Assembly: GCA_963838925.1 (NCBI GenBank)
Contig: CAWISW010000002.1
Span: forward strand, 192,001 to 256,000
DNA: 64,000 nucleotides
Source: an uncultured Nitrososphaerota archaeon
GTDB lineage: Archaea > Thermoproteota > Nitrososphaeria > Nitrososphaerales > Gagatemarchaeaceae
Direction: 5' to 3'
Shown here piece after piece: positions 36,521 to 58,618 of the stretch. Below the pieces are notes generated by a model that searched no databases, was not told the DNA's origin, and saw nothing but the letters and a program-made list of their open reading frames with translations. The position numbers and the translations under genes were made by a program. Positions within the stretch are counted from its first letter, which is position 1, and each line of letters begins with the position of its first letter.

Positions 36521-36550
36521 TTAAATACAAACTTAACCTAACTAGTTAGG
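36521..36550 (+). promoter_or_regulatory. CIS operon promoter: TATA (TTAAATA) plus perfect 14-bp palindrome CCTAACTAGTTAGG
   Basis: TTAAATA at 36521-36527; palindrome at 36537-36550, 1 nt before the sheath ATG. Confidence 0.65.
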
Positions 36551-36551: not shown

Positions 36552-37904
36552 ATGGCAAGGGTTATTCCAGGCGTCGAAATCAAAGTCGTCAAAGAAATCG
36601 TCCCACAGCAGCTCTACCCATCGGGCGTTGTCGGGATGATCGGCACAGCTGAGGGCGGGCCCATCCTGAAGCCCACCGGGGTCACGAGCTACAGGGAGCT
36701 CGTATCGATATTCGGGGGCGAGTCCGGTTCGCTCGTACGCGACGCGAAGCTTGCCTTCCTCAACGGAGTCTTCCAGGTCTACGCGACGCGCATCGAAGGC
36801 ACGGGCGGGACCATGGCCACCGCGAGCCTCCAGGGCGCACGGAGGAGGAACGTCGTGAGGCTCACCTCGAAGCTCTCGGGCGAGGCCGGGAACGAGACCG
36901 AGGTCATCGTGATGCGCGGGCAGAGCGAGAACACGGTACGCCTGGAGATAACCAACGACAAGATGCAGGAGACTTTCGATAACCTCACGATGCAGTCCGG
37001 GACGGAGCTCTTCCTTCCAGACTTTCTGAACGCAAACTCGAAGATAGTCGCGGCTGAGGACCTGAAGGCGAGCCTGGAGTTCCCAGACAGCAACCCCGTC
37101 GACGCCGAGATCCAGCTCGCAGGCGGAGCCTCGCAGCCGCCGACCAAGGACGACTACCAGAAGGCACTCGAGATGCTCGAGATGGAGCCGGAGGTAGACA
37201 GCGTGTATGCCTGCGACTCTTGGGACCCCGCGGTCCACGCCCTCGTCGATGCCCACTGCAAGAACATGAGCACCGACTGCAAGAACAGGATCGGGTTCGG
37301 GACGGTCGCCCCCAACGAGTCAGTCGAAGACATCCTCAAGAGGGTAGACGTCCTCGCGAGCGACAGGTTCGTCCTCACAGCTCCCTATGGGATCGGGGGC
37401 GCGGTGGCCGGGCTCATAAGCAAGCTTAGCTACTGGGAGTCGCCCACGTTCAAGGCGCTCACAGGGATAGCCAACATCGAGCACAGGTACACCCCCTCGG
37501 AGCAGATGAAACTCCTCTCCAACGGCATCTTGCCGGTTGACGCGGTGAGGGGCAGGGGGCTGATAGTGGTCAAGGGCATCACGTCCAGTAAAGAGCAGAT
37601 CAGCGTGATGAGGGTGGCGGACCACGCGGTGCGCGGCGTCAAGAACGTGGCAGACAACTTCATCGGGACGCTCAACAACGACAGGGGAAGGACGGCCCTG
37701 AGGGAAGGCCTCGCGGGCTTCCTGACAGGGATGTCCAAAGAAGGCTCGCTCGTCCCAAGCGTGGACGGGAAGAACCCGCCGTTCCTGGTCGACGTCTACT
37801 CCTCCCAGGAGGACTTCGCCCAGGGCATAGTGCGCGCGGACGTGGCGGTGAGGCCGGTGAGGGCGATGGATTATATCTACGCCACACTGACGGTGGAGGC
37901 ATAA
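36552..37904 (+). CDS. Contractile tail sheath protein
   Basis: N-terminal IPGV.I; G..G.A..GP...PT.V.S..E....FG; C-terminal RVAD, IG..N....R, V.PV....YI. Confidence 0.92.
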   Translation: MARVIPGVEIKVVKEIVPQQLYPSGVVGMIGTAEGGPILKPTGVTSYRELVSIFGGESGSLVRDAKLAFLNGVFQVYATRIEGTGGTMATASLQGARRRNVVRLTSKLSGEAGNETEVIVMRGQSENTVRLEITNDKMQETFDNLTMQSGTELFLPDFLNANSKIVAAEDLKASLEFPDSNPVDAEIQLAGGASQPPTKDDYQKALEMLEMEPEVDSVYACDSWDPAVHALVDAHCKNMSTDCKNRIGFGTVAPNESVEDILKRVDVLASDRFVLTAPYGIGGAVAGLISKLSYWESPTFKALTGIANIEHRYTPSEQMKLLSNGILPVDAVRGRGLIVVKGITSSKEQISVMRVADHAVRGVKNVADNFIGTLNNDRGRTALREGLAGFLTGMSKEGSLVPSVDGKNPPFLVDVYSSQEDFAQGIVRADVAVRPVRAMDYIYATLTVEA

Positions 37905-37913
37905 AGGGGGTAG

Positions 37914-38321
37914 ATGGAGATGTCCACACTAGTAGCGGCGAACGCCAGCCAGATCACCATCGACGGGAAGACGGTGCCAGGGATCCAGTCCATCGACTTC
38001 AAGATAGCGAGGAACAGGCAGAACATCCACGCCATCAGCACCGAGGAGCGCCTCGGCGCCTACTATGGCGCCCTGTTCGTCCAGGGCTCGATGAAGATAA
38101 AGTCCAACTACGACCCGTTGGACAAGAAGATGTACGAGACCATCCCCGCGCTCAAGTTCTTCCAGGTCGTGGTCCAGCTTCAGCCTCAGGCCGTGACCAG
38201 CCCCACCAAGAAGATCACCTTCGACGAGTGCATCCTCGAGGACAAGACCTTCGCGATGGACGCGACCGGCGTCGGGATGACGACGTACAACTTCACAGCC
38301 ACTAGAATCCGCGAAGAGTAG
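37914..38321 (+). CDS. Tail tube protein
   Basis: 135-aa beta-rich protein directly after the sheath (I.IDG..V..IQS.DF, final Y.F.A). Confidence 0.8.
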   Translation: MEMSTLVAANASQITIDGKTVPGIQSIDFKIARNRQNIHAISTEERLGAYYGALFVQGSMKIKSNYDPLDKKMYETIPALKFFQVVVQLQPQAVTSPTKKITFDECILEDKTFAMDATGVGMTTYNFTATRIREE

Positions 38322-38329
38322 GCTGAGCT

Positions 38330-38701
38330 TTGGCGGATAGAAAGCTCACCAAGGAGGACATACTCGAGGGCTCCCGGAAACGGGAGACCGTCTTTGTCAA
38401 GGAGTATGGCGCCAACGTGGTGGTGAGGCCCCTCACCGACGGTGAGCTTTCGAAGATCTTTTCCATCATCGGGCCCGTCCCTCTCAACCCGGACGGGACG
38501 CCCGACCTCCGCAAGATAGAGATCGACAAGAACTTCGAGGCCCTGCGCCTGGCGACCGAGCTGGGCCTGATAGAGCCCAAGCTGGACGGAATGGGCGTAT
38601 CGGACATGAAGTTCGGGGTCCCCGAGTTCATCGGGATGAAGATCCTCGAGCTGAGCGGGGTCGCTCCGGCGGAGCAGGCTAAAAAAAAAGGCGTGAAGTA
38701 G
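38330..38701 (+). CDS. Tail assembly chaperone (G)
   Basis: LT.EDIL, V.VRPLT..E, I.ELSG, ending in KKK encoded by an A9 run; follows the tube gene. Confidence 0.8.
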   Translation: MADRKLTKEDILEGSRKRETVFVKEYGANVVVRPLTDGELSKIFSIIGPVPLNPDGTPDLRKIEIDKNFEALRLATELGLIEPKLDGMGVSDMKFGVPEFIGMKILELSGVAPAEQAKKKGVK

Positions 38702-38922
38702 AGGACTTCGCCCGAAGCCCGGAAGGGATTGAGTTGGCGACGCTGTGCATCGACCTCGGATACAAGCTCGCCCCCGAGGCCCGCGACCTCACGCGGATGC
38801 AGATCAACTTCCTCATGGCCGTGCTCGCGACGCGGGCGGAGTCGGCAGCGGTGGCGGACCTCGCAGAGCAAGGAGTCACGAGGATAGTGTTCAGGGACGA
38901 CGCCACGGAAGGCGGGAGTTGA
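38683..38922 (+). CDS. Tail assembly chaperone frameshift extension (T), -1 frame
   Basis: -1 frame is open from 38683 (KKRREVEDFARSPEGIELATLC...DLTRMQINFL). Confidence 0.7.
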   Translation, partial: KKRREVEDFARSPEGIELATLCIDLGYKLAPEARDLTRMQINFLMAVLATRAESAAVADLAEQGVTRIVFRDDATEGGS

Positions 38923-38929
38923 CACCTGA

Positions 38930-41900
38930 TTGGCGAAGCGTAGCGAAAGCGAGCTCGACCGGCTGCGGAAGACCGTCGCCTCCTACGTGAAGGGACTGAT
39001 AGTCCTCGGCCTTGCCGCGCAGACGCTCTCGTCCTCTGGCGGAAGCTACCTCGCCGTGTCCCGATTGATCGGCGCAGGCATAGCCCTCGCGAGCAGGCTT
39101 CAACGAGGCATCGTCGTCAGGGTGGTGGGCGCGCCGCTGGTCAGGCGCCGTCCGCGCCGCAGGTCAAGAGCCGAAGCTTCGGAGGAGTACCCCGAGCCCT
39201 CGGGCTCCGCGGCCGAGGGAGCCACTGCCCGGGACCAGGCCTCGACGGGGTGGGAGGAGGTCGTGCCGCCGTCGCTCGCTCTCGCAGAGATAGACAGCCA
39301 GCCCTTCTCACTTGCGAGGGCGCTCCCGTCGATCGTCGCCGCACAACAATCCACTTTCAGGGCACTGTCGTCAGTCAACGCCGCCGTCTCGCGCGCGGTA
39401 GGGGGCGCGGGATTCGCATCCAGCCCATCACGGGCACCGCCCAGCCTGACGGCCCTGGAGCAGGGTCAGAGGCCGAGCCCCGAAGCGTTCCCGGAGAACC
39501 AGGCGACGTCTTTCGCGGGTGGGATGCCAGCCCTCGCGGCGGGAGTCGCGTTCAGGGCGGCCGCCTCCTCGATGGCCTTCAACCTCAGCAGCGCCGCCCA
39601 CGAGATGACCAACATCGCGCTGGGCTCCCAGGCCGTCGGCGCGAACTTCGCGTCGCAGCAGCCCCGCGCGGCGAAGGAGGGAACCGGGTTCCTGCCCGCC
39701 TCTCCCGCCGCGCCCTCGCCTTCACTCGCACAACAGTCCATCACCGGGAACGTCGACACCACGTTCAAGGGCGCCCAGCCCAGCGGCGCGAACCTAGGAC
39801 TGGTCAGCAGCGCGGGAGGCGCGTCTCCACCGACGACCCAGGCCCCTGCAGCTCCTTCGGCGGCCCTTCCTCTCACCAGAGAGTCGAGCGGAGCCCCGGG
39901 TCTATCCGCGGAGGTCGGCGGGCCTGCTGCCGGTTCGCAGTCCGGGGGAGTCACCGCCGGAACTTCTTCGTCTGGGTCTGGCGTCGAGCTGAACGCGGGA
40001 CCTTACACGGTGCCGAACGGGTTCAACTCCGTCCTTGCCTCGCCGCCCGTTGCAGCTGCCAGCCGGCTCTCGATGCAGGTCCGGTCGCTCGCTGCCTCGG
40101 CGTCTTCCGGTCAACTTCCGATTCGCGCCTCTCAGGAACCCTCCCACTCCGGAAGTCCGACCCAGGCTCTATCGGTCGTCCCCGAGCAATACCCTTCCAC
40201 ATATCCCGTGGGGGCTGCCTACTCGGTGAGCAGTCTGGTCGCGTCGCTCGGGCTCGGCCAGACCGGCCGCCCTGAGGCGCCCGCCTCCGCGCAGGAGGAG
40301 GCCGCTGCGCGGCTCACCCCGGAGGAGGCGCCGGGCGCCGAGGATGCCACAAGGACCTCGCGAGGGGCTTTCGTCGGCGAGCCGTTGGAGGCGCGGGGCG
40401 CTGGGATTGGGGGAGGGCCGTCTTCTCCAGAGGAAACAGCCCTCGGCGGGCCGCAGGTGTATGCCGAAGAGGGGGGCGCAGTCGCTTCCTCAAGCGATGC
40501 GCGCATCTCTAACGCCCAGCCGGTCGCCTCAAGGGGAGAGTTCGCATCGTTCGCTCCCGTGTTTGGCAAAAGGTGGCTCCAGTCCATAGCCGAGGCTGCG
40601 AGCATTGGGGGTGCCATGCTCGGAATGCTGACTGGCTCAGCCGCTTTGCCCTGGGACGGCACCTGGATACAGAAAGTCGGAGCGGAGGCCCGACCAACAC
40701 TCCCCTCTCGAAGCGTTTCGGGTCAAGCGATCGCGCCTCCGAGTTCTGCGGTGGGTGGCGGCCGAATCCTCGGACGAGGGGCAATCGTTCCCGAGGCGCA
40801 AGCGGCCCCCGAGGCCCGCGCGACCCAGCTTTCTAGCACCGTGTCAGGTCAACCTATCGCACCCTCGAGCTCAGGGGTGGATGGGAGCCGAGCATCTGGA
40901 AGGCGGGAATTGATTCCAGAGGTCGAGGCAGCCCCCGCGGGCACAGCTACGTCGCCAAGCGCGACTCCAGCTTCAACCGAGGTTCCGCGGGGAACCGAGT
41001 GGAGAGACTTGGCGAAGCGGGAAGAGGACATCTCGCCGACCTCGGGCCGGAACGTCCCCGCCCGGCCTCAGGAGCCGGAGTCCTCCCAGGCACCCCACCG
41101 GCAAGCCGGAATCTCGACCTGGGAGGCCGCCACGCTTCTTCCCGGGATCCTCACGCCGTCACTGTCCGCCGCCTTGTCCGCGCAAGCCCCCCCATCGCCA
41201 TCGGCAAGCCTGGACCTAAACTCCCGACCTGCCGTTTCAATCTCGACATCCGGCCTGGGGCTCGAAGGGGAGACCGCGCCAAGGCAGAGCTTCGATGCGC
41301 TCCGGCTCGCTGCTTCCCTAAGATCGGCACTTCTAGGCGTCTCCGCCAGCCTCATGGGTGCAAGGACCACCCTCCCCGCGGAGTCAGCCATGAAGCCGAC
41401 CCTCCGTCCGCAACTGGCTCAATATCTCGAGGCCACGGCCGGGAGGGGCCCCGGGACGTTCGTCAGTACCGGCGCCTCCGGCGTCTCGCGGAGGGTCGAC
41501 AGCTTCGAGCTCTCAAGAGCCCAGCGGGCACGCGAAGCCTTCCAGGGGCCCACGGAGGTCGCCTCATTCGCGACCACAAACCTTGCTGCACTTCAGGCCG
41601 CTTTCGTCTCACGCGGCTTGATCCCGGGCGGTGCGGTCGGGCGAGCGGGGAGCGCCCCCTCACTCACCATCGAGGCAGCAGGCGGGGAGGGCCAGAAGGC
41701 CACGCCGGGAACTCTTGCACCGGCCTCGCGCTCACCGCTAGCCCGGCGCGCCCTCGGCCAGTCGTCGGCGGCTCCTGAGCTGTCCTCTAGAGAGCTGGAG
41801 GAGCGAGCCCACGCGACGAACGCCGGGCGGGATCATTCCGCTTCCAGGGGTGTCTCCCCAACCAGCGAGAGAGATCTCGAGGCCGTGCTGGCATCCCTGT

Positions 41901-42304
41901 CTCGAGAGGGCCGCGGGAACGCCGAGGGGGTCTTCTTCGGCCTAGAGGCGGTCGCGCATGCCCTTTCGCTCGCTGCCAGGCTTCCGTCAGCCGCGCAGCT
42001 TAACGGCGCTCTCGCACCGATGCCCTCGAGGACCAGGGCGCCTGCCAAGGGCACGGCCCCAGCAAGGCAGGCAGCGAGGGAGGGCTCCTCGGAGGTCGGT
42101 TTCACGGCAGAGCCGTCCCGCCAGTCCGCCGAGGGCTGGAGGTCTGTCCCCGAAGAGTCAATCTCAAGGATGCTCGGAGAGCCGTCAGGCCGGCCAACGC
42201 CCCCCGCCCAAGACGCCGCTGTGGAACCTGACGACCGCGAGCTCCGGAGGAAGATCGAGAGGATCATCGACGAGGACCTTAGGAGGTACGGGTACCAGCC
42301 ATGA
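38930..42304 (+). CDS. 1124-aa Ala/Ser/Pro-rich low-complexity protein in tape-measure position
   Basis: Follows the TAC genes; helical-looking N- and C-termini (ELRRKIERIIDEDLRRYG) around a disorder-prone core. Confidence 0.65.
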   Translation: MAKRSESELDRLRKTVASYVKGLIVLGLAAQTLSSSGGSYLAVSRLIGAGIALASRLQRGIVVRVVGAPLVRRRPRRRSRAEASEEYPEPSGSAAEGATARDQASTGWEEVVPPSLALAEIDSQPFSLARALPSIVAAQQSTFRALSSVNAAVSRAVGGAGFASSPSRAPPSLTALEQGQRPSPEAFPENQATSFAGGMPALAAGVAFRAAASSMAFNLSSAAHEMTNIALGSQAVGANFASQQPRAAKEGTGFLPASPAAPSPSLAQQSITGNVDTTFKGAQPSGANLGLVSSAGGASPPTTQAPAAPSAALPLTRESSGAPGLSAEVGGPAAGSQSGGVTAGTSSSGSGVELNAGPYTVPNGFNSVLASPPVAAASRLSMQVRSLAASASSGQLPIRASQEPSHSGSPTQALSVVPEQYPSTYPVGAAYSVSSLVASLGLGQTGRPEAPASAQEEAAARLTPEEAPGAEDATRTSRGAFVGEPLEARGAGIGGGPSSPEETALGGPQVYAEEGGAVASSSDARISNAQPVASRGEFASFAPVFGKRWLQSIAEAASIGGAMLGMLTGSAALPWDGTWIQKVGAEARPTLPSRSVSGQAIAPPSSAVGGGRILGRGAIVPEAQAAPEARATQLSSTVSGQPIAPSSSGVDGSRASGRRELIPEVEAAPAGTATSPSATPASTEVPRGTEWRDLAKREEDISPTSGRNVPARPQEPESSQAPHRQAGISTWEAATLLPGILTPSLSAALSAQAPPSPSASLDLNSRPAVSISTSGLGLEGETAPRQSFDALRLAASLRSALLGVSASLMGARTTLPAESAMKPTLRPQLAQYLEATAGRGPGTFVSTGASGVSRRVDSFELSRAQRAREAFQGPTEVASFATTNLAALQAAFVSRGLIPGGAVGRAGSAPSLTIEAAGGEGQKATPGTLAPASRSPLARRALGQSSAAPELSSRELEERAHATNAGRDHSASRGVSPTSERDLEAVLASLSREGRGNAEGVFFGLEAVAHALSLAARLPSAAQLNGALAPMPSRTRAPAKGTAPARQAAREGSSEVGFTAEPSRQSAEGWRSVPEESISRMLGEPSGRPTPPAQDAAVEPDDRELRRKIERIIDEDLRRYGYQP
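40715..40936 (+). repeat. Imperfect 42-aa (126-nt period) tandem duplication
   Basis: VSGQAIAPPSSAVGGGRILGRGAIVPEAQAAP vs VSGQPIAPSSSGVDGSRASGRRELIPEVEAAP. Confidence 0.7.
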
Positions 42305-44481
42305 GCATCACCCTCGACGACATGGAGCTGGTGGCTCGCGACGAGGGCGACCCCGGGACCGTCAACGAGTTCAGGACCGTGAACCGGATATTCCTCAAGG
42401 GCAAGAGGCGCCTCGTCGAGACGAGGACGGCCGGCGCCGAAGGCAGCATCTTCGAGGACACGGGGAGAAGGGCCGCCGTCGTCGCCATCGAGGGCGAGAT
42501 GGTCGGGAAGACCGCGAGGACCAGCCTCGCCTCGCTGAAGACCAAGTACGACTCCAGCGAGCCCGTCTCGTTCTCCTCCGACATCTCTACCCTGGCGAAC
42601 ATCAGCCAGGTGGTCGTCGAGCGGCTCAGCATCCGCCAGCTGGCGGGGAAGGTCGACCACTACGAGTTCGCCATGACCCTCAAGGAGTACGTCTCCTCCG
42701 AAGCCCAGGACTCTTCGCCGCTTTCCCAGCTTGGCGATGCCTCCGCCGCGGTGGACGCGGTCGCCGCCGGTGAGCTCACCTCCGCGCTCGCCGACAGCGT
42801 CGACTCCAGCTTCGCCAGCGTCGAGGCGCTGAAGAACGCCGCCGAGCTTGACGTGCCCTCCCTCCTGAGCGACGCCAAGGGGCTGCTCGACGACGTGAAG
42901 GGCGCGGCCGCGGCCGAGATGGACGCCGCCGTGGAGGCAGCAGAGGAGAGCGCGAAGGAGGCGGAGGAAGCCGCCGAGCAGGCCTTCGACGAGGTGGTCA
43001 AGGTGGCGGAGGACTCCACCGAGGAGGTCCAGCAGGAGCTGGAGGCGACCGTCGAGAAGAGCAGGACCCTCCTGCAGGGGGTAATCGACGCCCTCCAGAG
43101 CGCCATAGACAAGGTGAACGAGGTCACCGACCGCATAGAGACGGATGTCCTCGAGAAGGCCCAGCAGTACGTCAAGGAGGCAGAGGACAAGCTCACAGGC
43201 CAGATCCGAGACACCGTCAACGAGGCGAGCAGCAAGCTCCAGGAGCTCATGGACGCGGGGAAGGAGCAGACCGACAAGGTCTTCGCTCTCATCCAAGATG
43301 TCATCGACAAGCTAGCCGCCGCGAAGGCTCAGATCGAGGCAAAGCTCGACTCGGCTAGCGAGAGCGCGGACGACCTCCTTGACAAAGCCACCGAGATGAA
43401 GTCGAGCCTCGAGCAGACCTTGGACGACGTCTTCCAAAAGGCCGCAGACGCGCTCGAGAAGGTCCGGGGGATCTCAGACCAGATGGCGGGCGCGGGAGAG
43501 GCCATCCAGGGGATCATCGACAAGTGCACGCAGTTCAAGCTTGACAAGGCCGCGGGCGCTGCGAAGAGCGCCAAGGACCTCCTCGAGAAGGCCGCGTCGA
43601 CCGCCGCCGAGGCGGTCTCGACGGTCACCGGGGCGCTCACTGACGCCAAGGGCCAGTACGAGGACATCAAGAGCACCCTCGACGGCGCCCTCGACGACCT
43701 CCGCGACGCCAAGGCGAAGGGCATCGAAGCGGTCAAGGGCGCGCTCGACAAGGTACAGAGCAAGGTGCTCGAGGTCCAGGCCACCGCGCAGAAGTTCGTG
43801 GACGACCTGTTCCAGAAGGCCAACGACCTTGTAACCGGGATCCAGCAGACGGTTCTGGCGACGCTCGACCAGCTCGTGGCCGACATCGACAAGATAGTCG
43901 AGACCGTGAAGGAGGGGATCCAGCAGGTACTCGAGGTCGCGCGGAAGACCGCCGTGGACGTGCTCACGCAGGCCCAAGACGCAGTGAGGGGGATCGAGGC
44001 GACCATCGAGAGCATCGGCCCCAAGCTCCAGGCCGAGAAGGACAAGGTAATCGCGCTGGTCACCGGGGCGAAGGAGCAGCTGGAGAAGGCGAAGGACGCC
44101 GTCACGACAGCCCTATCGAAGGTCAAAGAGGCCAAGGACAACGTGAGCGTCGGAGCGATAACCGACGCGATAAGCGCCATCAAGGACGCGGTGAAGGTTG
44201 TCAAGGACGCCGCCCAGTGGGCCACCCAGGCCGCGAAGGACGCTCAGGGCATACTCACGGCCGCCCTGGCGATTGCCGACGAGGTCAAGAAAGCGGCGAT
44301 GGACATGGCCGCGGCCTTCGAGAAGGCAGCCCAGGCCGTGAAGAGCGCAGCCGAGCAGGTCGCGGAGATTGCCGAGACGACCGCATCGTCCGTGGCGGAC
44401 CAGGCGAAGGGCGCCGCGGGAGACCTCGGCCAGGGCGTCGACAGCGTCACCGCAAAGGGGAAGGGAGCCCTTGGGAGTTAA
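42301..44481 (+). CDS. Tube-initiator-like (Mu gpN/DNA_circ_N-like) domain plus ~590-aa amphipathic helical region
   Basis: N-terminal ~130 aa is paralogous to 45060; the rest is A/D/E/K/Q-rich, nearly Pro-free and apolipoprotein-like. Confidence 0.7.
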   Translation: MSITLDDMELVARDEGDPGTVNEFRTVNRIFLKGKRRLVETRTAGAEGSIFEDTGRRAAVVAIEGEMVGKTARTSLASLKTKYDSSEPVSFSSDISTLANISQVVVERLSIRQLAGKVDHYEFAMTLKEYVSSEAQDSSPLSQLGDASAAVDAVAAGELTSALADSVDSSFASVEALKNAAELDVPSLLSDAKGLLDDVKGAAAAEMDAAVEAAEESAKEAEEAAEQAFDEVVKVAEDSTEEVQQELEATVEKSRTLLQGVIDALQSAIDKVNEVTDRIETDVLEKAQQYVKEAEDKLTGQIRDTVNEASSKLQELMDAGKEQTDKVFALIQDVIDKLAAAKAQIEAKLDSASESADDLLDKATEMKSSLEQTLDDVFQKAADALEKVRGISDQMAGAGEAIQGIIDKCTQFKLDKAAGAAKSAKDLLEKAASTAAEAVSTVTGALTDAKGQYEDIKSTLDGALDDLRDAKAKGIEAVKGALDKVQSKVLEVQATAQKFVDDLFQKANDLVTGIQQTVLATLDQLVADIDKIVETVKEGIQQVLEVARKTAVDVLTQAQDAVRGIEATIESIGPKLQAEKDKVIALVTGAKEQLEKAKDAVTTALSKVKEAKDNVSVGAITDAISAIKDAVKVVKDAAQWATQAAKDAQGILTAALAIADEVKKAAMDMAAAFEKAAQAVKSAAEQVAEIAETTASSVADQAKGAAGDLGQGVDSVTAKGKGALGS

Positions 44482-47578: not shown

Positions 47579-47649
47579 CGGCTCTCGCCGAGAGAAGAAT
47601 TATAACCTCAAGAGAGGCGGAACCAAGCGGATTGTCCTCGTCCAAGGCC

Positions 47650-48666: not shown

Positions 48667-48739
48667 AAGCGGGCGCTGGACGAGGACCGGCGCCTCCGTG
48701 AAAAGAAATAAGAACTCTCAGGGACTCCGGGTGAACTGA

Positions 48740-51424: not shown

Positions 51425-51437
51425 GAGATGGCGAGGT

Positions 51438-52403: not shown

Positions 52404-52480
52404 CCTAGCGTGTCCACGCCCCCCTTGCTGACCTTAAATCGGCCCGTTGGGGAACGGGGTACCATCGGGGTAGCAGACAG

Positions 52481-52906
52481 ATGAGCGAAGAGAAGCCCGT
52501 TCTTGGCAAGGACCTTCGACTCGTCTACGCGGACGTCGGCGCAGACCTCAAGGTCTCCCCGTCCGGTGACCTCGAGCTCGTCGACGACGAGCTCAACCTG
52601 GGCCAGGCGATAGTCCACAGGATGAGGACCCGTCCCGGGGAGCTCCTTGACATCGGGCACTCCTCCTACGGCTCAAAGCTCTACGACCTCATCGGGGAGC
52701 CCAACAACGAGGCCACGCGGGAGAAGGTGAGGGCGGTGGTCATCGAGGCCCTCGAGAGGGAGCCACGAGTGAAGAAGGTCGTGAAGGTCTCTGTGACGGT
52801 GAGGAGGGACAGGCCCGACGCCGTAGACGTAGACGTGAGCCTCATCGCGACGGACACTGAGGTGCCGCTCAACGTCGTCTTCCCGTTCTACCTGGAGAAC
52901 GCATAG
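52481..52906 (+). CDS. Baseplate wedge protein gp25/GPW
   Basis: NL.QAI..R..T..GEL...GH..YGS.L..LIGEP, L..EPRV. Confidence 0.9.
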   Translation: MSEEKPVLGKDLRLVYADVGADLKVSPSGDLELVDDELNLGQAIVHRMRTRPGELLDIGHSSYGSKLYDLIGEPNNEATREKVRAVVIEALEREPRVKKVVKVSVTVRRDRPDAVDVDVSLIATDTEVPLNVVFPFYLENA

Positions 52907-52907
52907 C

Positions 52908-54521
52908 ATGTCCTACGAGACCAAGTCCTTCGAGGAGATCACGACGTCGATGCTCGAGCAGCTCACCAAGGCGGTCGTGAGGGAGAACCTGGTCTACGAC
53001 CCGACCAAGGTCAGATACCGCCTGGGCTCCGGCGAGGACGGAATCCGCGACGTGGTCAAGGTCGAAGGCCCGGTGAAGGGGGTGCGGGCGTCCTTCGCAA
53101 AGGGGACCGACTATCGGCTCTCGGAGGGGATGTTTGAGTGGTTAGAGGGCGGGAAACGACCCGACGTCATGTCGACGTTCGAGGTCTCATACCTCTTCGG
53201 TAGCCCGTCGCCCATCACGGACGTCAACCCGGGGAGCGTCGTTCGGACCATCATCGAGGCCATAGGCCGGGAGATCGAGTACCTGTACGCCCAGAACGAC
53301 TACGTCTACAAGGCGGGGTTCATAGACACCGCCTCCGGCAACTCGCTTGACCTCGTGGTCGCGATCCTCGGCGTGCAGAGAAGGCCTGCCCAGAACGCGG
53401 CGGGGCTGGTGACGTTCGGCAGGAGGAAGCCCCCGCCGGAGTTGCCTCCACAGGAGCAGGTGATAGTCTATGACGGAGGGAAGAAGTACGACCTGAAGCG
53501 GACGCCGGTCTTCGACATCATCAGCGTCAAGGGAATGCTGCACAACCAGCCGTTCGTCTTCAAGAAGGGTGCGGACTATTCCCTCGACGGCGACTCGCTA
53601 TCGTGGCTCGAGAGCACGTTCAAGCCCGACTACCGCTCAGAGTTCAGGGTCGCCTACAAGGCGTACCAGCAAGTGGCCATACCGAAGGGGACCCGGCTCT
53701 CCACCTCCTCCCGCCGTAAGCAGGAGGTGAAGCTCTTCGAGACCACAGATGAGGCTGTCCTCCAGAGGAAGCCGCTGGGCGTTTGGGAGGTCGACGTCCC
53801 CGTGAAGGCCGTGGACGCGGGCCCCGGGGGCAATGTGCTTTCGGGAAGCATCACGCTGATGCCTCAGCCGGTCGAGACGATAGAATTCGTGGTCAACAGG
53901 CAGCCCTTGAGCGGGGGCACCGAGCCAGAGACCGACAACGTCCTGAGGGACAGGGCGAAGAAAGGGCTCCGGGCACTTGGACGCGCCACATACAACTCGC
54001 TCAAGCAGCGCATCGAGGAGATTGACGGCGTCGTCAGGCCCGTGAGGATAGACGAGATGCCCGTCCTCTACTCCGTGGAGATGGGGGGGAGCGCGGTGGA
54101 CCTGCCGGTCCCGGGCGTGGTCAGGGTCATCGTCGACGGAGGGGAGATGGACAAGATCAAACAGGCGGTCGACGACACTAGGGCCGCGGGCGTATACGTC
54201 CAGATACTTCGGCCTAAGTTCCTGCTGCTCGACGTCCGGGTGCTCCTGGAGCTACAGGACGGGACCCAGCTCGCCGACGTCGAAGAGGCGATCAAGGACG
54301 GGGTGGAGGCCTACGTCGGCTCCGTCACGACAGGCGAGACGGTGATATTCGGGAGGCTCGTAGCCGTCGCGCTGGCCTCGAAGGGGGTGAGGGACGTCAA
54401 GGGCATCGCCGTGGACTACTACAGGGACGGCCAGCCGGGCGGCAGCAGCTCCAGGGAGAACATCGTGCTAGACGCGGACGAGAAGCCAAGGGTCAGGACA
54501 GTGAGCGTGCTAGTCGGGTGA
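52908..54521 (+). CDS. Baseplate J/gp47-like protein with two inserted beta domains
   Basis: D.NPGSV.RT..EA, IDTA.G..LD, A.G.VTF, GG...ETD..LR.R. Confidence 0.9.
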   Translation: MSYETKSFEEITTSMLEQLTKAVVRENLVYDPTKVRYRLGSGEDGIRDVVKVEGPVKGVRASFAKGTDYRLSEGMFEWLEGGKRPDVMSTFEVSYLFGSPSPITDVNPGSVVRTIIEAIGREIEYLYAQNDYVYKAGFIDTASGNSLDLVVAILGVQRRPAQNAAGLVTFGRRKPPPELPPQEQVIVYDGGKKYDLKRTPVFDIISVKGMLHNQPFVFKKGADYSLDGDSLSWLESTFKPDYRSEFRVAYKAYQQVAIPKGTRLSTSSRRKQEVKLFETTDEAVLQRKPLGVWEVDVPVKAVDAGPGGNVLSGSITLMPQPVETIEFVVNRQPLSGGTEPETDNVLRDRAKKGLRALGRATYNSLKQRIEEIDGVVRPVRIDEMPVLYSVEMGGSAVDLPVPGVVRVIVDGGEMDKIKQAVDDTRAAGVYVQILRPKFLLLDVRVLLELQDGTQLADVEEAIKDGVEAYVGSVTTGETVIFGRLVAVALASKGVRDVKGIAVDYYRDGQPGGSSSRENIVLDADEKPRVRTVSVLVG

Positions 54522-55444
54522 CGATAGAATTGGAGAGGACCAGGCGGATTGCTGACAGGCTCCCCGAGTTCTACAGGACCTGGGACACCGACTCCGTCAT
54601 CTTCAAGGTCCTCGACTCGGTGGGGCGGTCCCTCAACGAGGAGCAGAAGAGCGTCTTCCGCATCATGCGGACACACTGGGTGGACACCGCCAACCGCGGC
54701 GACCTCGACAAGCTGGGCGCGATATTCGAGCTCACGAGGACCAACGAAGAGGCCGACGACGACTATCGCGCACGAATCAAGAGCGCGCTCCGGCAGTTCA
54801 AGGGCGGCGGCACAGTGGCATCCGTCAAGACTCTGATGGCCGACTTCCTCTCCGTGAGGGAGGAGGAGCTTGAGGTAGTGGAGAACCCCGAGCGCAAAAT
54901 GTCGATTGAAAAGAGAGTCGCGGGCGGCCAGACCTGGACCCTCGGGAGCATGAGCGTCGAGGAGGCCTCCCCGGTGATCGAGATGACGCTCCAGGGCGAG
55001 GGGAATGTCGTGCTAAACCCGGCGCTGAGGAACCTGGACTCGGGCGGGCGCGTGGGCTTCGAAGGGCGGTTCAGGGTCGGCCAGAGGCTGGTCATGAGCG
55101 AGGGCTCCGCCACACTCGACGGGGAAGACGTCTCGTCTTTGGTCACCGCCTCGCCCGCGTTCCCGAGGCTCAGTTCGGGCGGCTCGCGCTGGGTCTACGA
55201 GGAGGCCATCTCGGCGAAGGTCGGCCACCTCTCGAAGAGCTCCTTCGGCTCCTCGATCTTCGCCCTTCCGGTGCCCGACGCGGTGATACGCCTGACCTGG
55301 TCAGGGAGGCAGCCCTCTACCTTCGCGCTGCGGGTCCCTCCGAGGGCACTGGCGGCCAGCGGTGTGTCCGAGGGCGAGGCCGCGGACTTTCTTAATACTA
55401 TAAAGGGAGCAGGCGTGCGGGCAGAACTGGTTGTGAAGGAGTAG
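54518..55444 (+). CDS. Baseplate wedge protein (P2 gpI-like)
   Basis: LP.FY, .DTA...DLD.LG, E.DD.YR.RI, GGT; C-terminal IK.AGV. Confidence 0.75.
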   Translation: MTIELERTRRIADRLPEFYRTWDTDSVIFKVLDSVGRSLNEEQKSVFRIMRTHWVDTANRGDLDKLGAIFELTRTNEEADDDYRARIKSALRQFKGGGTVASVKTLMADFLSVREEELEVVENPERKMSIEKRVAGGQTWTLGSMSVEEASPVIEMTLQGEGNVVLNPALRNLDSGGRVGFEGRFRVGQRLVMSEGSATLDGEDVSSLVTASPAFPRLSSGGSRWVYEEAISAKVGHLSKSSFGSSIFALPVPDAVIRLTWSGRQPSTFALRVPPRALAASGVSEGEAADFLNTIKGAGVRAELVVKE

Positions 55445-55451
55445 AGCCCCG

Positions 55452-56105
55452 TTGACCAGCTTCAAGCCAAAGATCGCGCAGCCTGGGGACACCATCACCG
55501 CGGACGACTGGAACTACATCCAGCAGGGGATCCTCGAGGACCTCGTGCGACTGGAGGCCGAGAACGCGGAGCTGAGGAGGTACGTGGACAACATGTCCGA
55601 GATCAACACGATAACCCGCCTGGACAGCCCGGAGGGCAAGTCCTACGGGCTCGACGAGAAGGTCCCGGGCGAGACCGGCACCTACGGGACCGACCTGCTC
55701 GGCTTCATCACGAAGCAGTGGCTACCGTCGGTCAGGGCCGCCTCGGTCGACATATGCCGCTTCACCGTCGCCAACCTCTTCGACCAGCTCGACTTTTGGG
55801 CCGGCGCAGAGAACGGAAACCAAAAGGCGCTGGACGTCTCCATCAGGTACGTGGACGGCTCCACGGAGACCGTGAAGAACCTCGTCGTCCACGAGAGGAA
55901 GAAGCTCTCCGCGAAGGGGGCCGAGAACCCCTACGTCGAGTTCCTGCTCGCCCCCAACCAGTGGGTGTGGTACAGGTACAGGCTGCCCAACCCCCACCCG
56001 GACAGGGAGGTTCTCTCAGTGACTTTCAAGAACTCCAATCCAAAGTCGACCACCAGGATTGCCGACGTCATGCAGCTCAGGACGAAGATCAAGCAGCTGA
56101 AGTGA
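55452..56105 (+). CDS. CIS-associated protein (possible short fibre/receptor-binding)
   Basis: N-terminal PGD.ITA.DWN motif as seen in tail-fibre-adjacent proteins, a short coiled coil and a beta-rich C-domain. Confidence 0.55.
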   Translation: MTSFKPKIAQPGDTITADDWNYIQQGILEDLVRLEAENAELRRYVDNMSEINTITRLDSPEGKSYGLDEKVPGETGTYGTDLLGFITKQWLPSVRAASVDICRFTVANLFDQLDFWAGAENGNQKALDVSIRYVDGSTETVKNLVVHERKKLSAKGAENPYVEFLLAPNQWVWYRYRLPNPHPDREVLSVTFKNSNPKSTTRIADVMQLRTKIKQLK

Positions 56106-56108
56106 TCT

Positions 56109-56825
56109 TTGGTGCTAAGCGAGATCTCCAGCGGGCTCGTGAAGGCGCTCCAGGAGAGGATGGAGAGCGTAAACAAGGAGAACATAGCCTCGCGCTCGCC
56201 GCGCCTCGACCCGGTGCCCCTCCCAGCCTTGTTCGTATACAGCCCCAACTTCACGTTTGAGGACGTAGGCCTCGGCGGCGAGGGCGTGGAGGTGAAGGAG
56301 GAGAAGCGGGAGTCGTTCAGCGGGGACGGCTCGCGGACGGTCTTCTCCCTGGCAGGCAAGGCCCAGAGGCCCCTCCTGCGCGTCGAGTCGTCCACGGGGC
56401 ACCTTCAGATAGAGAACGTGGACTACAAGATGGACTACAGCAGGGGGACGATAACCTTCCGCGCGCCTCCGCCCAAGGGCTCTGAGAACGTCTCGGTCAA
56501 GTACAACTCCGCGGCGGGCGCGGGCAAGACGAAGCAGATCCACATGAACGCCACCTACAACGTCGAGGTCTGGTCGGGGAACGAGAAGCAGAGGGACGAC
56601 ATCACGGTGGACGTGATAAAGGCGGTCGCCCTCGCGCAGGAGGACTTCGCGAACAGGGGGATGCTGGTCAAGCCGGTGGAGGGCGTAGACCTCTATGCTT
56701 CCAAGGAGCTGCCAGGCGGGGTCTTCGCGAAGCGCCTGGTCTACTCCGTCGAGGCGAACCTGCAGGTGAAGATTCCAGCCTCGAGAATCGAGCGGGTGGA
56801 CGTGAGGCAGCTCCCGCCCAAGTGA
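56109..56825 (+). CDS. Tail terminator/cap-like protein with inserted beta domain
   Basis: Helix-P.L-beta layout, Y..EVWS....RD; inserted GDG...F.L...DY..DY..G.I.F domain. Confidence 0.55.
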   Translation: MVLSEISSGLVKALQERMESVNKENIASRSPRLDPVPLPALFVYSPNFTFEDVGLGGEGVEVKEEKRESFSGDGSRTVFSLAGKAQRPLLRVESSTGHLQIENVDYKMDYSRGTITFRAPPPKGSENVSVKYNSAAGAGKTKQIHMNATYNVEVWSGNEKQRDDITVDVIKAVALAQEDFANRGMLVKPVEGVDLYASKELPGGVFAKRLVYSVEANLQVKIPASRIERVDVRQLPPK

Positions 56826-56837
56826 GTTGGCATTGAG

Positions 56838-57470
56838 ATGAGCGGAATAGTCGAGGCGATGAAGAAGGTCGCGGAGTCGGAGGTGGGGAAGGTCCACGTG
56901 GCCGAGCTCGGCGTCGTCACATCGGTCTTCCCCCACGCCGACGAGGGCGACAACGACAACTACGAGTGCAGCGTGAAGCTCAGGGACAAGGACGTCGAGC
57001 TCCGGCAGGTCCCAGTCGCGACGCAGCACATAGGGTTCGCGAGCATCCCACAGGTGGGGGACCTCGTCCTGGTCTCGTTCGTCAATGGGGACGTCAACGC
57101 CCCAGTCATCACTGGGCGCCTCTACAACGACGAGGACCGCCCCCCCGCATCACAGGCAGAAGAGATGGTCTACATCCCTCCCTACACCTCGAACCCTGAC
57201 CTCCGCAGGATATACATCGAGCTGCCCGACCAGACGGTCACTCTCACCATCCAGGACGAGAAAGTGACAATCCACGTCGGGGACACCGACGTCGCAATAA
57301 GCAAGGAGGAGGGCGTCAGCCTCACCTCGAAGCTGCCGATATCGATAAGCACCGAGGACGACCTCTCGATAAAGGCGAAGAACGTCAAGATAGAGAGCGA
57401 CGCCGACACCGAGATCACGGCGAGCGGAAAGACCACGATCAAGGGGACCACCGTGGACCTCAACCCGTAG
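56838..57470 (+). CDS. Spike protein (gpV/gp5/VgrG C-terminal-like)
   Basis: OB-fold G.V...., P.VGD.V.V.F..GD...P...G.LYN, followed by beta-helix repeats. Confidence 0.9.
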   Translation: MSGIVEAMKKVAESEVGKVHVAELGVVTSVFPHADEGDNDNYECSVKLRDKDVELRQVPVATQHIGFASIPQVGDLVLVSFVNGDVNAPVITGRLYNDEDRPPASQAEEMVYIPPYTSNPDLRRIYIELPDQTVTLTIQDEKVTIHVGDTDVAISKEEGVSLTSKLPISISTEDDLSIKAKNVKIESDADTEITASGKTTIKGTTVDLNP

Positions 57471-57479
57471 TGGGACCCA

Positions 57480-57797
57480 ATGCCAGCCGCCGCCCGCCAG
57501 ACTGATCCGGTGCAAGGCAACTGCAGCCACGGCTGCCCCATATGCCCCCACCCGGTCGTGGGGATTGTCTCCGCCGGCTCGCCGACCGTGCTCATAAACA
57601 GCCTGCCTGCAGCGAGGCAGGACGACAAGGGGCTGCACGCCCCCTGCTGCGGCCCGAACAACTTCACCGTCGCAAAGGGCTCTGGTACCGTGAACATCAA
57701 CGGAAAGCCGGCCGCGAGGAGCGGGGACAGCACAAAGCACTGCGGAGGCGACGGCTCGATACAGAACGGTAGCCCGACCGTGAACATAGGAGGCTAG
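57480..57797 (+). CDS. PAAR-domain spike tip protein
   Basis: AAAR, PAAR, PAAR repeats with metal-binding Cys/His. Confidence 0.95.
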   Translation: MPAAARQTDPVQGNCSHGCPICPHPVVGIVSAGSPTVLINSLPAARQDDKGLHAPCCGPNNFTVAKGSGTVNINGKPAARSGDSTKHCGGDGSIQNGSPTVNIGG

Positions 57798-57800
57798 TCG

Positions 57801-58618
57801 GTGCCCGCCCCAGACGCGAAGATGTTCGCTCAGCTCGCGAAGACCCAGTACCTTTCCAAGGGGGTGAGCCTCCCGCCGAGCTGGGACTCGGGGCTCGAGG
57901 ACGACGTCAACGGCAAGACCCCGGAGTTCGGCCCCGGGTCCCGAAGCCCACGAACCTGTTCATGCCGCCCAGCCCCAAGAAGATAGCGGTCGACGCGGCC
58001 AACGCGATAAGCGACGGCTTCAACGGGTTCATCGACGACGTCGCTGCGGCGGTCTGCGGCGCCTGGGCGAACTGGCAGAGCTCGGTGAAGTTCGTGGGCG
58101 TCATCATCAACGGTCCGATCGGGATCCTTCCCCCCGCGGGGATGATAGGAGGGGGGATGATGGCCACGCCCATGATAATGTCTCAGTTCAACCAAAAGTC
58201 CGCGAACTACACTCTCTACGGGAGCGCCGTTGCGTTCGCGATAGGCCAGGCGTGGACCGCGTGGGAGCTGGGGTACACCAACCCCGCCATCCCGTTCCCT
58301 GGCGGCGCAGCGGCCTCTGCCACGATGCCTCCCTCTCCCAACACCCCCGTCCCGCTCGCCTCGGGAGTCTCTCCCGGGGACGCGCTGATGCAAGGAGCGG
58401 CCCTGAAGGGATTGATGATGAGTCAGGTCGCCCCTCCGGGCCTGCACGACGACGAGCTCTTCGACTCCATAGCCCAGGCCTTCGCCCAGGTCTTCCTCAC
58501 GTGGAAGGGCACGTCGATGATAAGCAACATAATGGGCGCGGGGGGCGTCGCTCCTCCTCCGCCCGCGCCTCCAGGGCCCGTTGCCGGTGCCATAGGCAGC
58601 GGCGGGGCCGTGCAGTAG
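57801..58618 (+). pseudogene. Gly/Pro/Ala-rich CIS-associated gene split by an apparent 1-nt frameshift near 57936-57938
   Basis: Adding one G to GGG joins ORF 57801 (..EFGPG) to the 57962 frame (VPKPTNLFMPP..); could be an assembly error. Confidence 0.55.

Follow-up and report, generated by a model that had tools for sequence, protein, structure and literature searches.

A probable head-less contractile injection system with a variable enzyme slot in a Nitrososphaerota archaeon and its relatives

Gene content of the locus

The window analyzed here is a stretch of 64,000 nucleotides (positions 192,001 to 256,000 of contig CAWISW010000002.1, assembly GCA_963838925.1) from the genome of an uncultured Nitrososphaerota archaeon, and its main subject is a cluster of genes at 36552-58618 that probably encodes a contractile injection system without a phage head. 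The genome (G000) consists of three contigs, 1.84 Mb in all, and is 87% complete. The cluster is a single plus-strand operon that begins with the sheath ATG at 36552 and ends with the last plus-strand open reading frame (ORF) at 58618. An earlier reading of the bare sequence, referred to below as the original prediction, had outlined a single plus-strand run of about 22 kb with these coordinates, and they proved exact by the ORF listing. The G+C content of third codon positions (GC3), at 0.82-0.95, tracks the called frame across every gene of the cluster except a 1124-aa ORF at 38930-42304 (about 0.72); because it follows the plus-strand frames, the minus-strand ORFs of the interval are regarded as by-products of a GC content of 62-68%. 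All cluster genes are intact, with a strong codon-position signal, and their orthologs in three relatives (G012, G014, and G007) align to the window genes mostly at full length; the 1124-aa gene matches piecewise only, and its G007 copy consists of two ORFs. In the otherwise GC-rich spacer before the operon, an AT-rich stretch, aattaaatacaaa, was seen by eye at 36519-36531, 21-33 nt 5' of the sheath ATG; it looks like an archaeal TATA box with a leaderless or short-leader transcript.

The 20 ORFs of the cluster were scanned against Pfam with curated cut-offs and also against PHROGs (E-values are given in brackets). The first gene encodes a tail sheath of 450 aa (36552..37904, on the plus strand, as are all genes of the cluster; PF04984, 3.6e-15; phrog_279, 7e-51). 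Its orthologs are 55-94% identical in 24 genome loci, it is the only PF04984 match in the whole genome, and its similarity to solved sheaths is remote, the best match being 7.5e-7 over part of its length. The tail tube gene (135 aa, 37914..38321; phrog_365, 8.4e-4) lies directly 3' of the sheath in all loci, and a profile of 13 tube orthologs gave weak full-length matches to the diffocin tube CD1364 and to XkdM (E of about 0.4). The chaperone gene that follows is described below. Next to it, the 1124-aa ORF (38930..42304) is without family match and is assigned by position to the tape-measure slot; half of its residues are Ala, Ser, Pro, or Gly. An ORF of 440-1008 aa occupies this slot in every relative, and all share a C-terminal motif, LRELE.KI..IL.E..RRYG (in the window, RELRRKIERIIDEDLRRYGYQP). 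Though not a helical tape measure of the typical kind, the ORF is a genuine gene at the tape-measure position. In G007 (locus L005, 12359-15477) the gene appears as ORFs of 919 and 151 aa in different frames, with the C-terminal motif on the second, which reflects either a frameshift or an assembly error in a low-complexity region of 70% GC.

Two paralogs with a DUF6046 domain, both with a faint DNA_circ_N match, stand on either side of a small gene. The first (726 aa, 42301..44481) joins an N-terminal DUF6046 (DNA_circ_N-like) domain, over cut-off (4.1e-7; 30.4 bits against 27.4), to about 600 aa of helical repeats; residues 176-711 match tape-measure PHROGs (5.7e-12), residues 24-127 match phrog_5233, 'baseplate hub', and an Apolipoprotein-like match (1.4e-10) stays below cut-off. 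This gene is present only in the window, G012, and G014. The small gene encodes a protein of 199 aa rich in Ala, Gln, and Lys (44477..45076, start inferred; GC3 0.85-0.90), without family match and 64-84% identical in G014 and G012. The second paralog (251 aa, 45060..45815) is the copy conserved in all loci, a DUF6046/DNA_circ_N/Dit-like hub protein with a C-terminal Ig-like domain (CarboxypepD_reg, 6.9e-7); its DUF6046 match, at 27.3 bits, is just under the 27.4 cut-off, and 21 of its 30 matches among Atlas features are DNA_circ_N clusters, alongside Dit-like clusters. The original prediction had spoken of two tube-initiator paralogs. The paralogs are there, and their proposed role is an inference from DNA_circ_N/Dit-like similarity and position, since profile-profile comparison of the DNA_circ_N-like and tube alignments showed no relation (probability 0.2%). 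A profile search of solved structures with the DNA_circ_N-like domain returned nothing usable (best hit a ribosomal protein, 0.056).

The baseplate hub protein (321 aa, 51438..52403), of the gpD/gp44 type, matches phrog_52, 'tail protein' (2.2e-12), and Phage_GPD below cut-off (0.0027), and is conserved in all loci that extend to it. It is followed by a gp25-like sheath initiator (141 aa, 52481..52906; PF10934, 3e-8; PF04965, 1.9e-6; phrog_975, 5.3e-16), a baseplate J/gp6-like wedge protein (537 aa, 52908..54521; PF04865, 5.2e-25; phrog_6, 6.4e-49) whose PDB matches are a phage wedge protein (5.8e-11) and diffocin TRI-2 (1.8e-10), and a gpI/gp7-like wedge protein (308 aa, 54518..55444; phrog_1160, 'baseplate protein', 4.4e-17; no Pfam match). 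The original prediction had named most of these parts. For sheath, gp25, J, spike, and PAAR the Pfam matches are over cut-off; for tube, chaperone, hub, and I-like protein it was borne out by PHROG matches of varying strength, weak for tube and chaperone.

Two further proteins of this region stand out. A family-specific protein of 217 aa (55452..56105) has no Pfam, PHROG, or PDB sequence match, including in a profile search of solved structures, and all 39 homologs found are unnamed or 'hypothetical'. Its AlphaFold2 model (pLDDT 67) shows a helix at the N-terminus and a beta-sandwich at the C-terminus, the sandwich having weak fold matches to carbohydrate-binding modules and lectin-like domains (1.5e-3 and worse). 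Identity among orthologs is 43-48% across phyla, and an alignment of ten of them, drawn from several phyla, has 45 invariant columns. From its predicted fold it is a candidate fibre or adaptor; its position is fibre-like, yet it is unusually conserved for a receptor binder. The next gene (238 aa, 56109..56825) found nothing usable in a sequence-profile search of solved structures (0.95), and its AlphaFold2 model (pLDDT 79) gave 14 PDB matches at E<=1e-3 in Foldseek, of which those with readable titles are neck or terminator chains. These fold matches include the neck of phage 812 (1.3e-8), phages E217 and P1, T5 p142, and the PVC cap (9.1e-4), with the pyocin R2 collar at 3.7e-3. Judged by this model, the protein is a tail terminator or cap, so that the set of parts would be complete from tip to cap; it and the chaperone extension at 38683-38922 are additions to the parts of the original prediction. 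The operon closes with a gpV-like spike (210 aa, 56838..57470; PF04717, 4.6e-8; phrog_9992, 4e-5), a PAAR tip (105 aa, 57480..57797; PF05488, 1.4e-14), and, 3' of PAAR, a protein of 218 aa rich in Gly, Ala, Pro, and Met (57962..58618). The last has no family match, found only unnamed clusters with low recognition in the Atlas search, has one borderline hydrophobic segment (residues 44-62), and is 68-88% identical in three congeners.

A conserved putative recoding site in the chaperone gene

The gene between tube and tape-measure slot encodes the G form of a tail assembly chaperone (123 aa, 38330..38701; phrog_344, 0.0018), 60-70% identical across phyla. Near its end stands a run of nine A residues (38681..38689, in the context GCT-A9-GGC...TAG); the 1.84-Mb genome has no other A/T run of nine or longer. 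From this run a GT-form extension stays open for 79 codons in the -1 frame (38683..38922) and fills the 228-nt gap before the gene at 38930. All 14 loci that were compared keep the peptide of this extension, ...RSPEG.ELATLC.D.GYKLA...LTR.QI.FL... Adding 13 further loci (A9 in 10, A10 in two, A8 in one), some from near-identical genomes, a run of A8 to A10 is found at the same site in 27 of 27, with A9 in 24, A10 in two, and A8 in one; homopolymer sequencing errors are an alternative explanation for the A8 and A10 runs. Besides the window (38681-38689), the chaperone-end run was noted at L014-L016, L026, L027, and L039. At L014-L016 the conserved extension is in the +1 frame instead of the -1 frame, and the run is still A9. 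The run and the out-of-frame peptide are kept across region GC contents from 0.35 to 0.70.

This is the arrangement of G/GT chaperone genes, with a slippery site near the 3' end of G and an extension that overlaps G in another frame and stops short of the tape-measure gene. The phage-like G/GT chaperones of the original prediction are thereby confirmed in run and extension, and the T part lies in a frame other than the one that a plain reading suggests. An 81-aa ORF at 38745-38990 was considered as the T part and rejected; its translation is Arg/Pro-rich, as of an off-frame, and is not in the conserved frame. Because one homopolymer serves both directions of shift, slippage of the polymerase would fit at least as well as slippage of the ribosome.

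A slot with different enzymes in different lineages

The position between the conserved DNA_circ_N-like gene and the hub gene is termed here the variable slot. In the window it contains three genes. The first encodes a beta-sandwich repeat protein of 588 aa (45812..47578) with four to five units of about 345 nt, seen in the DNA as repeat families D1 and D2; it matches DUF4198 just below cut-off (6.2e-8) and evolves fast (68% identical in G012, 34% in G014). The second encodes a subtilase of family S8 (PF00082, 1.2e-11). Its ORF extends over 46399-48666, and the frame signal places the true start near 47650, which leaves about 338 aa (47650..48666); the D, H, and S motifs were seen by eye in the translation as VIDEG, HGTRV, and GVSFAIP. 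Searched alone, the subtilase had no PDB sequence match at 1e-3. The third encodes a phospholipase D (PLD) of 894 aa (48740..51424; PF00614, 1.9e-13), which has the two HxKxxxxD motifs of the HKD superfamily, at residues 325 (HQKMVVVD) and 717 (HSKLMIVD). Its nearest solved relative is plant PLD alpha 1 (6.6e-59), followed by human PLD1 and PLD2. Neither the PLD nor the subtilase of the window has a hydrophobic N-terminus, and both are payload candidates. The original prediction had noted PAAR together with enzymes in mid-operon, and all three families (PF05488, PF00082, and PF00614) are over cut-off.

The content of the slot changes between relatives. G012 (sheath 94% identical) has the layout of the window, with structural proteins 81-98% identical and both PLD and repeat protein at 68%. 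G014 (sheath 90%) has no subtilase and has a PLD that is 42% identical, with both HKD motifs kept. G007 (sheath 80%) is without the 726-aa and 199-aa genes, the repeat protein, the subtilase, and the PLD; its slot contains a 510-aa protein with HELGHSVGLWHH, which matches Reprolysin_5 (1.3e-5; 26.0 bits against a cut-off of 27) and is thus metzincin-like, and a TPR protein. In two Bathyarchaeia loci (L018 and L020; sheath 56%), the slot encodes a protein of 430-437 aa with Amidase_2 (8e-30 and 2e-30), and at L010, L012, and L014-L016 (sheath 59-62%) the slot-flanking genes abut without an insert. Because one position carries different hydrolytic enzymes by lineage, none of them with a hydrophobic N-terminus, these enzymes are read as payload; the idea of enzyme cargo in the original prediction thus gains from the comparison, slot content varying as expected of payload.

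No immunity gene was recognized adjacent to the PLD gene. Among 68 flank ORFs of related loci, two match SUKH-4 (1.4e-5), an immunity family tied to polymorphic toxin systems. Further genes were seen near the tips of other clusters. In a Hadarchaeota locus (L035, 819-1406, minus strand), a gene for a 2'-5' RNA ligase/LigT-type phosphoesterase (9.5e-35) lies directly 3' of the PAAR gene. Three loci titled Nitrososphaeria and Methanomethylicia (L032, 693-4812; L033, 728-4843; L036, 762-4927) have three extra co-oriented genes between the terminator and the PAAR/zinc-ribbon pair, for proteins of about 165, 705-742, and 480-490 aa; the L032 copies have no Pfam match, and the three may be further payload or structural parts.

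Absence of head genes and an empty site

The original prediction had called the system capsid-less and had recognized no portal, terminase, integrase, or AAA+ ATPase. Among the 20 cluster ORFs there is indeed no family match for an AAA+ ATPase (E<=0.01), integrase, capsid, portal, or terminase. Five head families, Phage_capsid (PF05065), Terminase_6N (PF03237), TerL_ATPase (PF03354), Phage_portal (PF04860), and Portal_Mu (PF06074), have no match in the window's own genome, and three of them (PF05065, PF03237, and PF04860) have none in any of five sheath-bearing genomes of 95-100% completeness, two of which are single contigs.

Both flanks consist of cell genes. Upstream are genes for Nramp, a DtxR-type repressor, and a pyridoxal phosphate (PLP) enzyme with a rhodanese domain; downstream are those for a zinc-ribbon protein, a channel-like protein, and a hexapeptide transferase. 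In 11 related loci, with 68 flank ORFs, the 25 most frequent of 146 families are cell functions (PfkB, DHDPS, ABC permeases) and zinc ribbons, and in four of these loci the genes directly beside the sheath look cellular by eye, for example ferritin- or rubrerythrin-like in one and thioredoxin-reductase-like in another. In two sheath-less congeners, G018 and G009, the PLP-enzyme and hexapeptide-transferase genes are about 70 and 135 nt apart. Because the flanking cell genes adjoin there, about 36353-60470 (about 24 kb) of the window is a block that is either present or absent; the operon and the genes for the zinc-ribbon and channel-like proteins all lie inside it. No integrase family was matched in the block or the scanned flanks (window 1-20983 and 61075-64000 lay outside the scan), and a repeat search of 36200-60700 found no direct repeats at the borders among the 20 families listed, those listed being internal to the 588-aa gene.

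Distribution of the family

At least 823 sheath homologs were found at E<=1e-5 among 8000 candidates scored. The best 120 of the 823 are all at least 59% identical, and the few that are named are titled Nitrososphaerales, Nitrososphaerota, Methanomethylicia, or Bathyarchaeia. A scan of one genome per species placed the sheath in 24 loci, and in 13 of these tblastn with the window proteins recovered a common core order, so that the synteny asked for in the original prediction is present: sheath, tube, chaperone, tape-measure slot, DNA_circ_N-like protein, hub, spike, (PAAR), gp25, J, I-like protein, 217-aa protein, and terminator. This core of about 11 kb has the same gene order in metagenome-assembled genomes labelled Nitrososphaeria, Bathyarchaeia, Methanomethylicia, and Hadarchaeota, with sheaths 55-65% identical, and in loci titled Nitrososphaera. 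In two Nitrososphaera loci and one IMG/VR contig, the baseplate half is inverted or stands ahead of the sheath. Relative to the core, the window's genus has spike and PAAR at the 3' end of the operon, followed by the 218-aa protein, a duplicated DNA_circ_N-like gene, and the 588-aa repeat protein, subtilase, and PLD between the conserved copy and the hub.

Occurrence is patchy. The sheath is found in 6 of 22 other species of the genus, in neither of two genomes of the family's other genera, and in none of 16 genomes from the order's other families; when the phylum was sampled evenly, 11 of 400 other genomes had it, as did 5 of 334 of high quality. Against 50,697 phage records the sheath had two matches of 24-26% identity, both in phages of Gram-positive bacteria. 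IMG/VR holds three sheath contigs of 10-15 kb, with tail genes only, plus the zinc-ribbon gene in two. A 5-kb contig binned as an Anaerolineales bacterium (L024), with sheath and tube 47% and 39% identical to those of the window, comes either from a bacterial relative of the family or, by wrong binning, from an archaeon.

Neighbouring genes for zinc-ribbon and channel-like proteins

Convergent with the operon, and inside the present/absent block, is a gene for a zinc-ribbon protein of 260 aa (58621..59403, minus strand; DZR, 5.9e-10). The protein has a transmembrane (TM) helix at residues 8-27 (Kyte-Doolittle hydrophobicity 3.13 at residue 9) and a beta-rich domain that is conserved; the double zinc ribbon at its C-terminus has six cysteines, all invariant. 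A DZR gene stands beside the cluster in 18 loci (the window, L007, L009, L011, L018, L019, L021, L023, L026-L028, and L030-L036); it was not found in the other 11, most of which are short or end inside the cluster and so carry little weight either way. Its architecture differs between lineages. In the window's genus it consists of TM helix, beta domain, and ribbon, and in the Nitrososphaeria-type loci L007, L009, L011, L026, and L027 of beta domain and ribbon, with no TM helix as called. The proteins of Hadarchaeota and of one Bathyarchaeia locus combine Ig-like domains (Invasin_D3, Big_1) with the ribbon, and in three Bathyarchaeia loci the protein is 777-796 aa long, with a layout that may be read from the sequence, aided by the Pfam family counts, as signal peptide, PQQ-type propeller, Ig-like domains, TM helix, cytoplasmic tail, and zinc ribbon. 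In six loci (L009, L011, L032, L033, L035, and L036, the pair in L036 being assigned by architecture), the zinc-ribbon gene is directly upstream of a same-strand PAAR gene. Our favoured guess is that the protein is a candidate membrane dock or sensor for the machine. Complex prediction of the PAAR protein and the 217-aa protein with zinc-ribbon residues 45-245 gave a score of 0.00; controls were not run, and the result is evidence neither way.

Directly upstream of the zinc-ribbon gene, co-oriented with it and inside the same block, is a gene for a membrane protein resembling pentameric ligand-gated channels (322 aa, 59449..60417, minus strand; Neur_chan_memb, 1.3e-6). The two genes adjoin in G012 and G007 as well, and the channel-like gene is missing at the empty site of G018 and G009. 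G007 has two copies of it there, and on the sheath side another paralog occurs in G012 and G014.

Other features of the window and genome

Away from the cluster, within 25479-26509, an ORF of 323 aa with LAGLIDADG homing-endonuclease domains ends 15 nt inside a tRNA-Gln(TTG) gene (26436-26509). Phosphate-related genes stand in a row at 20984-25435, for a histidine phosphatase, Ppx/GppA, two thymidylate-kinase-like proteins encoded in tandem, and a CHAD-domain protein, and have the look of a polyphosphate module. ARAGORN finds 22 tRNA genes in the 1.84 Mb, three of them with odd anticodon loops; the low count may be due to intron-containing tRNAs missed by the default mode or to the incomplete assembly.

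Interpretation

Taken together, the operon at 36552-58618 and the convergent zinc-ribbon gene probably make up a functional head-less contractile injection system with an enzyme payload, to judge from the gene content. The best explanation of its origin is descent from a myovirus tail module of the sheath-tube-chaperone-tape-measure-hub-spike-gp25-J-I type, and the best reading of its relatives is a distinct archaeal lineage with a swappable enzyme payload. In such a system the operon would be transcribed from the AT-rich box just 5' of the sheath ATG, and slippage on the A9 run would yield the two forms of the chaperone. The central complex would be built from the tape-measure-slot protein, the DNA_circ_N/Dit-like ring protein, gpD-like hub, gpV spike, and PAAR, with wedges of gp25, J, and the I-like protein; by analogy with known contractile tails, tube and sheath would polymerise and the terminator would cap them. 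PLD and subtilase, given their place in the variable slot, would be carried as payload and delivered at contraction. The PLD would cut phospholipid head groups, whose bond occurs in archaeal ether lipids and in bacterial ester lipids, and the peptidoglycan amidase of the Bathyarchaeia slot points to bacterial targets in that group. The hybrid 'particle' and the 'antagonism' of the original prediction are likewise putative.

A number of observations weigh against this reading. The 87% completeness of the genome leaves room for head genes, archaeal head proteins that have diverged far may escape the Pfam head models, the Portal_Mu negative carries little weight because no control genome matched that family, and a single head gene in one flank could stay hidden in a tally that covers 25 of 146 families. 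The tape-measure-slot ORF has an odd composition (50% Ala/Ser/Pro/Gly in the genus) and a weak GC3 signal. For the payload, BLASTP between the proteins of different loci found no common N-terminal region or loading signal, the metzincin label of the G007 protein is below the Pfam cut-off with a motif seen partly by eye, and the slot enzymes could be tail-associated penetration enzymes instead of injected toxins. No lysis or release family (holin, endolysin) was matched in the cluster ORFs or the scanned flanks, which leaves the route out of the cell unexplained, and archaeal release factors may be unrecognizable. A search of sequencing runs for the locus listed no RNA run; two DNA runs of one study, labelled soil metagenome, contain at least half of the sampled words.

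Two explanations would make the locus viral. That it is the decaying and now functionless tail half of an integrated Mu-like archaeal myovirus would account for the myovirus gene order, the patchy distribution (6 of 22 other species of the genus, 11 of 400 other genomes of the phylum), and the present/absent block, but it is distinctly improbable, as lineages far apart have this head-less layout with every core gene open, the A-run and its out-of-frame peptide persist from GC 0.35 to 0.70, and no integrase was matched in the block or the scanned flanks. Structural proteins 81-98% identical in G012, with payload genes that diverge faster, point to selection, not decay, and the widespread decay that the original prediction had allowed for is not seen, genes being intact and their orthologs open in relatives. 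That the operon is instead the tail module of a complete virus, with its head genes elsewhere or too divergent, draws on the incompleteness of the genome, on the escape of archaeal head proteins from Pfam models, and on the viral classification of three such contigs by IMG/VR; yet those contigs hold tail genes only, plus the zinc-ribbon gene in two, the two single-contig sheath genomes lack all three head families searched, and the flanks are recognizable cell genes that are adjacent at the empty site. We consider this the least probable of the alternatives, and a very slim one.

Other alternatives concern where a cellular machine would act. Streptomyces systems are cytoplasmic and require the membrane protein CisA, according to PMC10066040 and PMC12237407, and on this precedent the machine could fire in its own cell and bring about regulated cell death under stress. 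The lack of release genes and the linked membrane protein in the window's genus fit such a role, but the peptidoglycan amidase encoded in the Bathyarchaeia slot lacks a substrate in archaeal cells and PAAR with varied hydrolytic enzymes is the pattern of weapons against other cells, so this is improbable. A considerably stronger candidate, though still a minority one, is a machine like a type VI secretion system (T6SS), cytoplasmic, docked to the membrane through the zinc-ribbon protein, and fired outward on contact. It has a haloarchaeal precedent with a conserved membrane protein (PMC11566945), and in its favour are the DZR protein linked in 18 loci, with an N-terminal TM helix in the window's genus, the signal peptide, propeller, and TM helix read from the 777-796-aa proteins of three Bathyarchaeia loci, the zinc-ribbon gene directly upstream of PAAR in six loci, the absence of recognizable lysis genes, and a 217-aa outer baseplate candidate far more conserved than the usual receptor-binding fibres. 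The orthologs of L007, L009, L011, L026, and L027 have no TM helix as called, however, any contact between zinc-ribbon protein and machine is putative, there is no ClpV-like recycling ATPase, and a tape-measure-slot protein, G/GT chaperones, and a terminator typify tails of fixed length that fire once. Because these same features mark single-use tails, and because the closest solved parts are those of diffocin, release as a free, tailocin-like particle is favoured among the modes of action, at about even chances.

A wider proposal is distinctly tentative: that the family is an old archaea-specific lineage of Nitrososphaeria, Bathyarchaeia, Methanomethylicia, and Hadarchaeota, separate from Afp-like systems and known viruses, in which an Ig-like/double-zinc-ribbon protein couples to the envelope a contact-dependent weapon with exchangeable enzymes and two chaperone forms made by slippage. 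If so, the zinc-ribbon protein would carry an extracellular propeller sensor in some lineages, soil and sediment archaea would attack bacteria and other archaea with PLD, proteases, or peptidoglycan amidase, and the universally kept A-run would, through slippage, provide one of the few examples of programmed recoding in genes of archaeal cells. The family described here has a core of 13 genes, a payload slot with a sharply defined place, a putative recoding site that is conserved, and a linked candidate anchor or sensor, and it occurs in archaeal groups that dominate soils and sediments. The Bathyarchaeia amidase and the PLD of the window provide concrete, testable target hypotheses, and the small, ATPase-free gene set is a candidate for heterologous assembly.

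Comparison with known systems

What is known of the function of archaeal injection systems rests on haloarchaea and on the Afp-like type (PMC11566945); there, haloarchaeal systems of extracellular contractile injection system (eCIS) ancestry (clade IIa) fire in a T6SS-like manner and depend on a conserved membrane protein. Described archaeal systems are Afp-like and come from haloarchaea, methanogens, and anaerobic methanotrophic archaea (ANME) (PMC11566945, PMC9012536, PMC8213781), and the phage-like protein-translocation structure (PLTS) clusters of ANME and methanogens are here grouped with the eCIS of Afp/PVC type. One survey reported eCIS from a single archaeal phylum and defined its operons as not being phage, T6SS, or R-type pyocins (PMC8213781), and because of that definition the window family may fall outside it. 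Elsewhere, sheath homologs in Thaumarchaeota and Bathyarchaeota are mentioned without resolution (PMC9230969), prophage regions of Caldarchaeales are listed with a 'putative phage assembly protein' that resembles contractile injection systems (PMC10547907), and the sheath domain serves as a marker for archaeal injection systems in asking if archaea kill bacteria (PMC12352652). A literature search found no description of the window family within its coverage, outside which lay supplementary locus lists and the 2019 mBio survey of archaeal conflict systems.

On a broad definition the window locus encodes a contractile injection system, its sheath, gp25, J, and spike being recognized by Pfam or PHROGs and its tube by position and weak profiles. 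The closest likeness is to R-type tailocins (diffocin and the R-pyocins) and PBSX, with which it shares a head-less chromosomal contractile tail, single sheath and tube genes, a chaperone, a tape-measure slot, gp25-J-I wedges, and a terminator. Diffocin provides the nearest solved relatives of the tube profile (CD1364) and of J (TRI-2), and the pyocin R2 collar is among the fold matches of the terminator. We take the gene order of diffocin and PBSX to match that of the window, the LysM protein of tailocins and PBSX presumably standing where the window has its DNA_circ_N/Dit-like protein. R-type tailocins have a lysis cassette, and none is recognizable in the window cluster; the archaeal host, the PAAR tip, the enzymes inside the operon, and the linked zinc-ribbon protein further set the window system apart from them. 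Tailocins of this type kill solely by puncturing the membrane and carry no protein payload; the enzymes in the window operon suggest that a payload may be delivered here.

Systems of the Afp/PVC type share with the window the lack of a head, a PAAR tip, a cap or terminator (the PVC cap being among the fold matches), and associated toxins. In contrast to it, they have, as defined in dbeCIS and eCIStem, an AAA+ ATPase (Afp15-like) and several sheath (Afp2-4) and tube (Afp1, Afp5) paralogs. Their definition also pairs a spike of the Afp8 type (a gp27-gp5 fusion, VgrG-like) with Afp11 (baseplate J); the window has J, and its hub (321 aa) and spike (210 aa) are separate genes with no fusion of VgrG length. 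G/GT frameshift chaperones and a mid-operon payload are further differences. In the tails of Mu/P2-like myoviruses, the order of sheath, tube, chaperone, tape measure, DNA_circ_N-type protein (Mu gpN family), gpD/gp44-type hub, gpV, gp25-type protein, J, and I agrees with that of the core found in 13 loci. Such phages also have head, portal, terminase, and transposase genes, none of which is recognizable in the cluster, and compared with their tails the window's genus has moved spike and PAAR to the operon end and duplicated the DNA_circ_N-like gene.

The PLD invites comparison with the Tle5 effectors (PldA and PldB) of T6SS, which likewise combine a eukaryote-type, two-HKD PLD with a contractile, PAAR-tipped machine; it matches PDB 7v53, a 1099-aa 'Phospholipase D' that we take to be Pseudomonas PldA, at 4e-25. 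T6SS differ in their TssB/C sheath, ClpV, and TssJLM membrane complex, whereas the window sheath is of the phage type (PF04984), and no T6SS or AAA family was matched among the cluster ORFs, the whole genome not having been searched by T6SS accession. The system thus appears to fall outside the Afp/PVC, T6SS, and provirus classes and agrees with tailocins in being head-less, without their lysis cassette. Going by its sequence, it appears tailocin-like in parts and order, and eCIS- or T6SS-like in its PAAR tip and enzymes.

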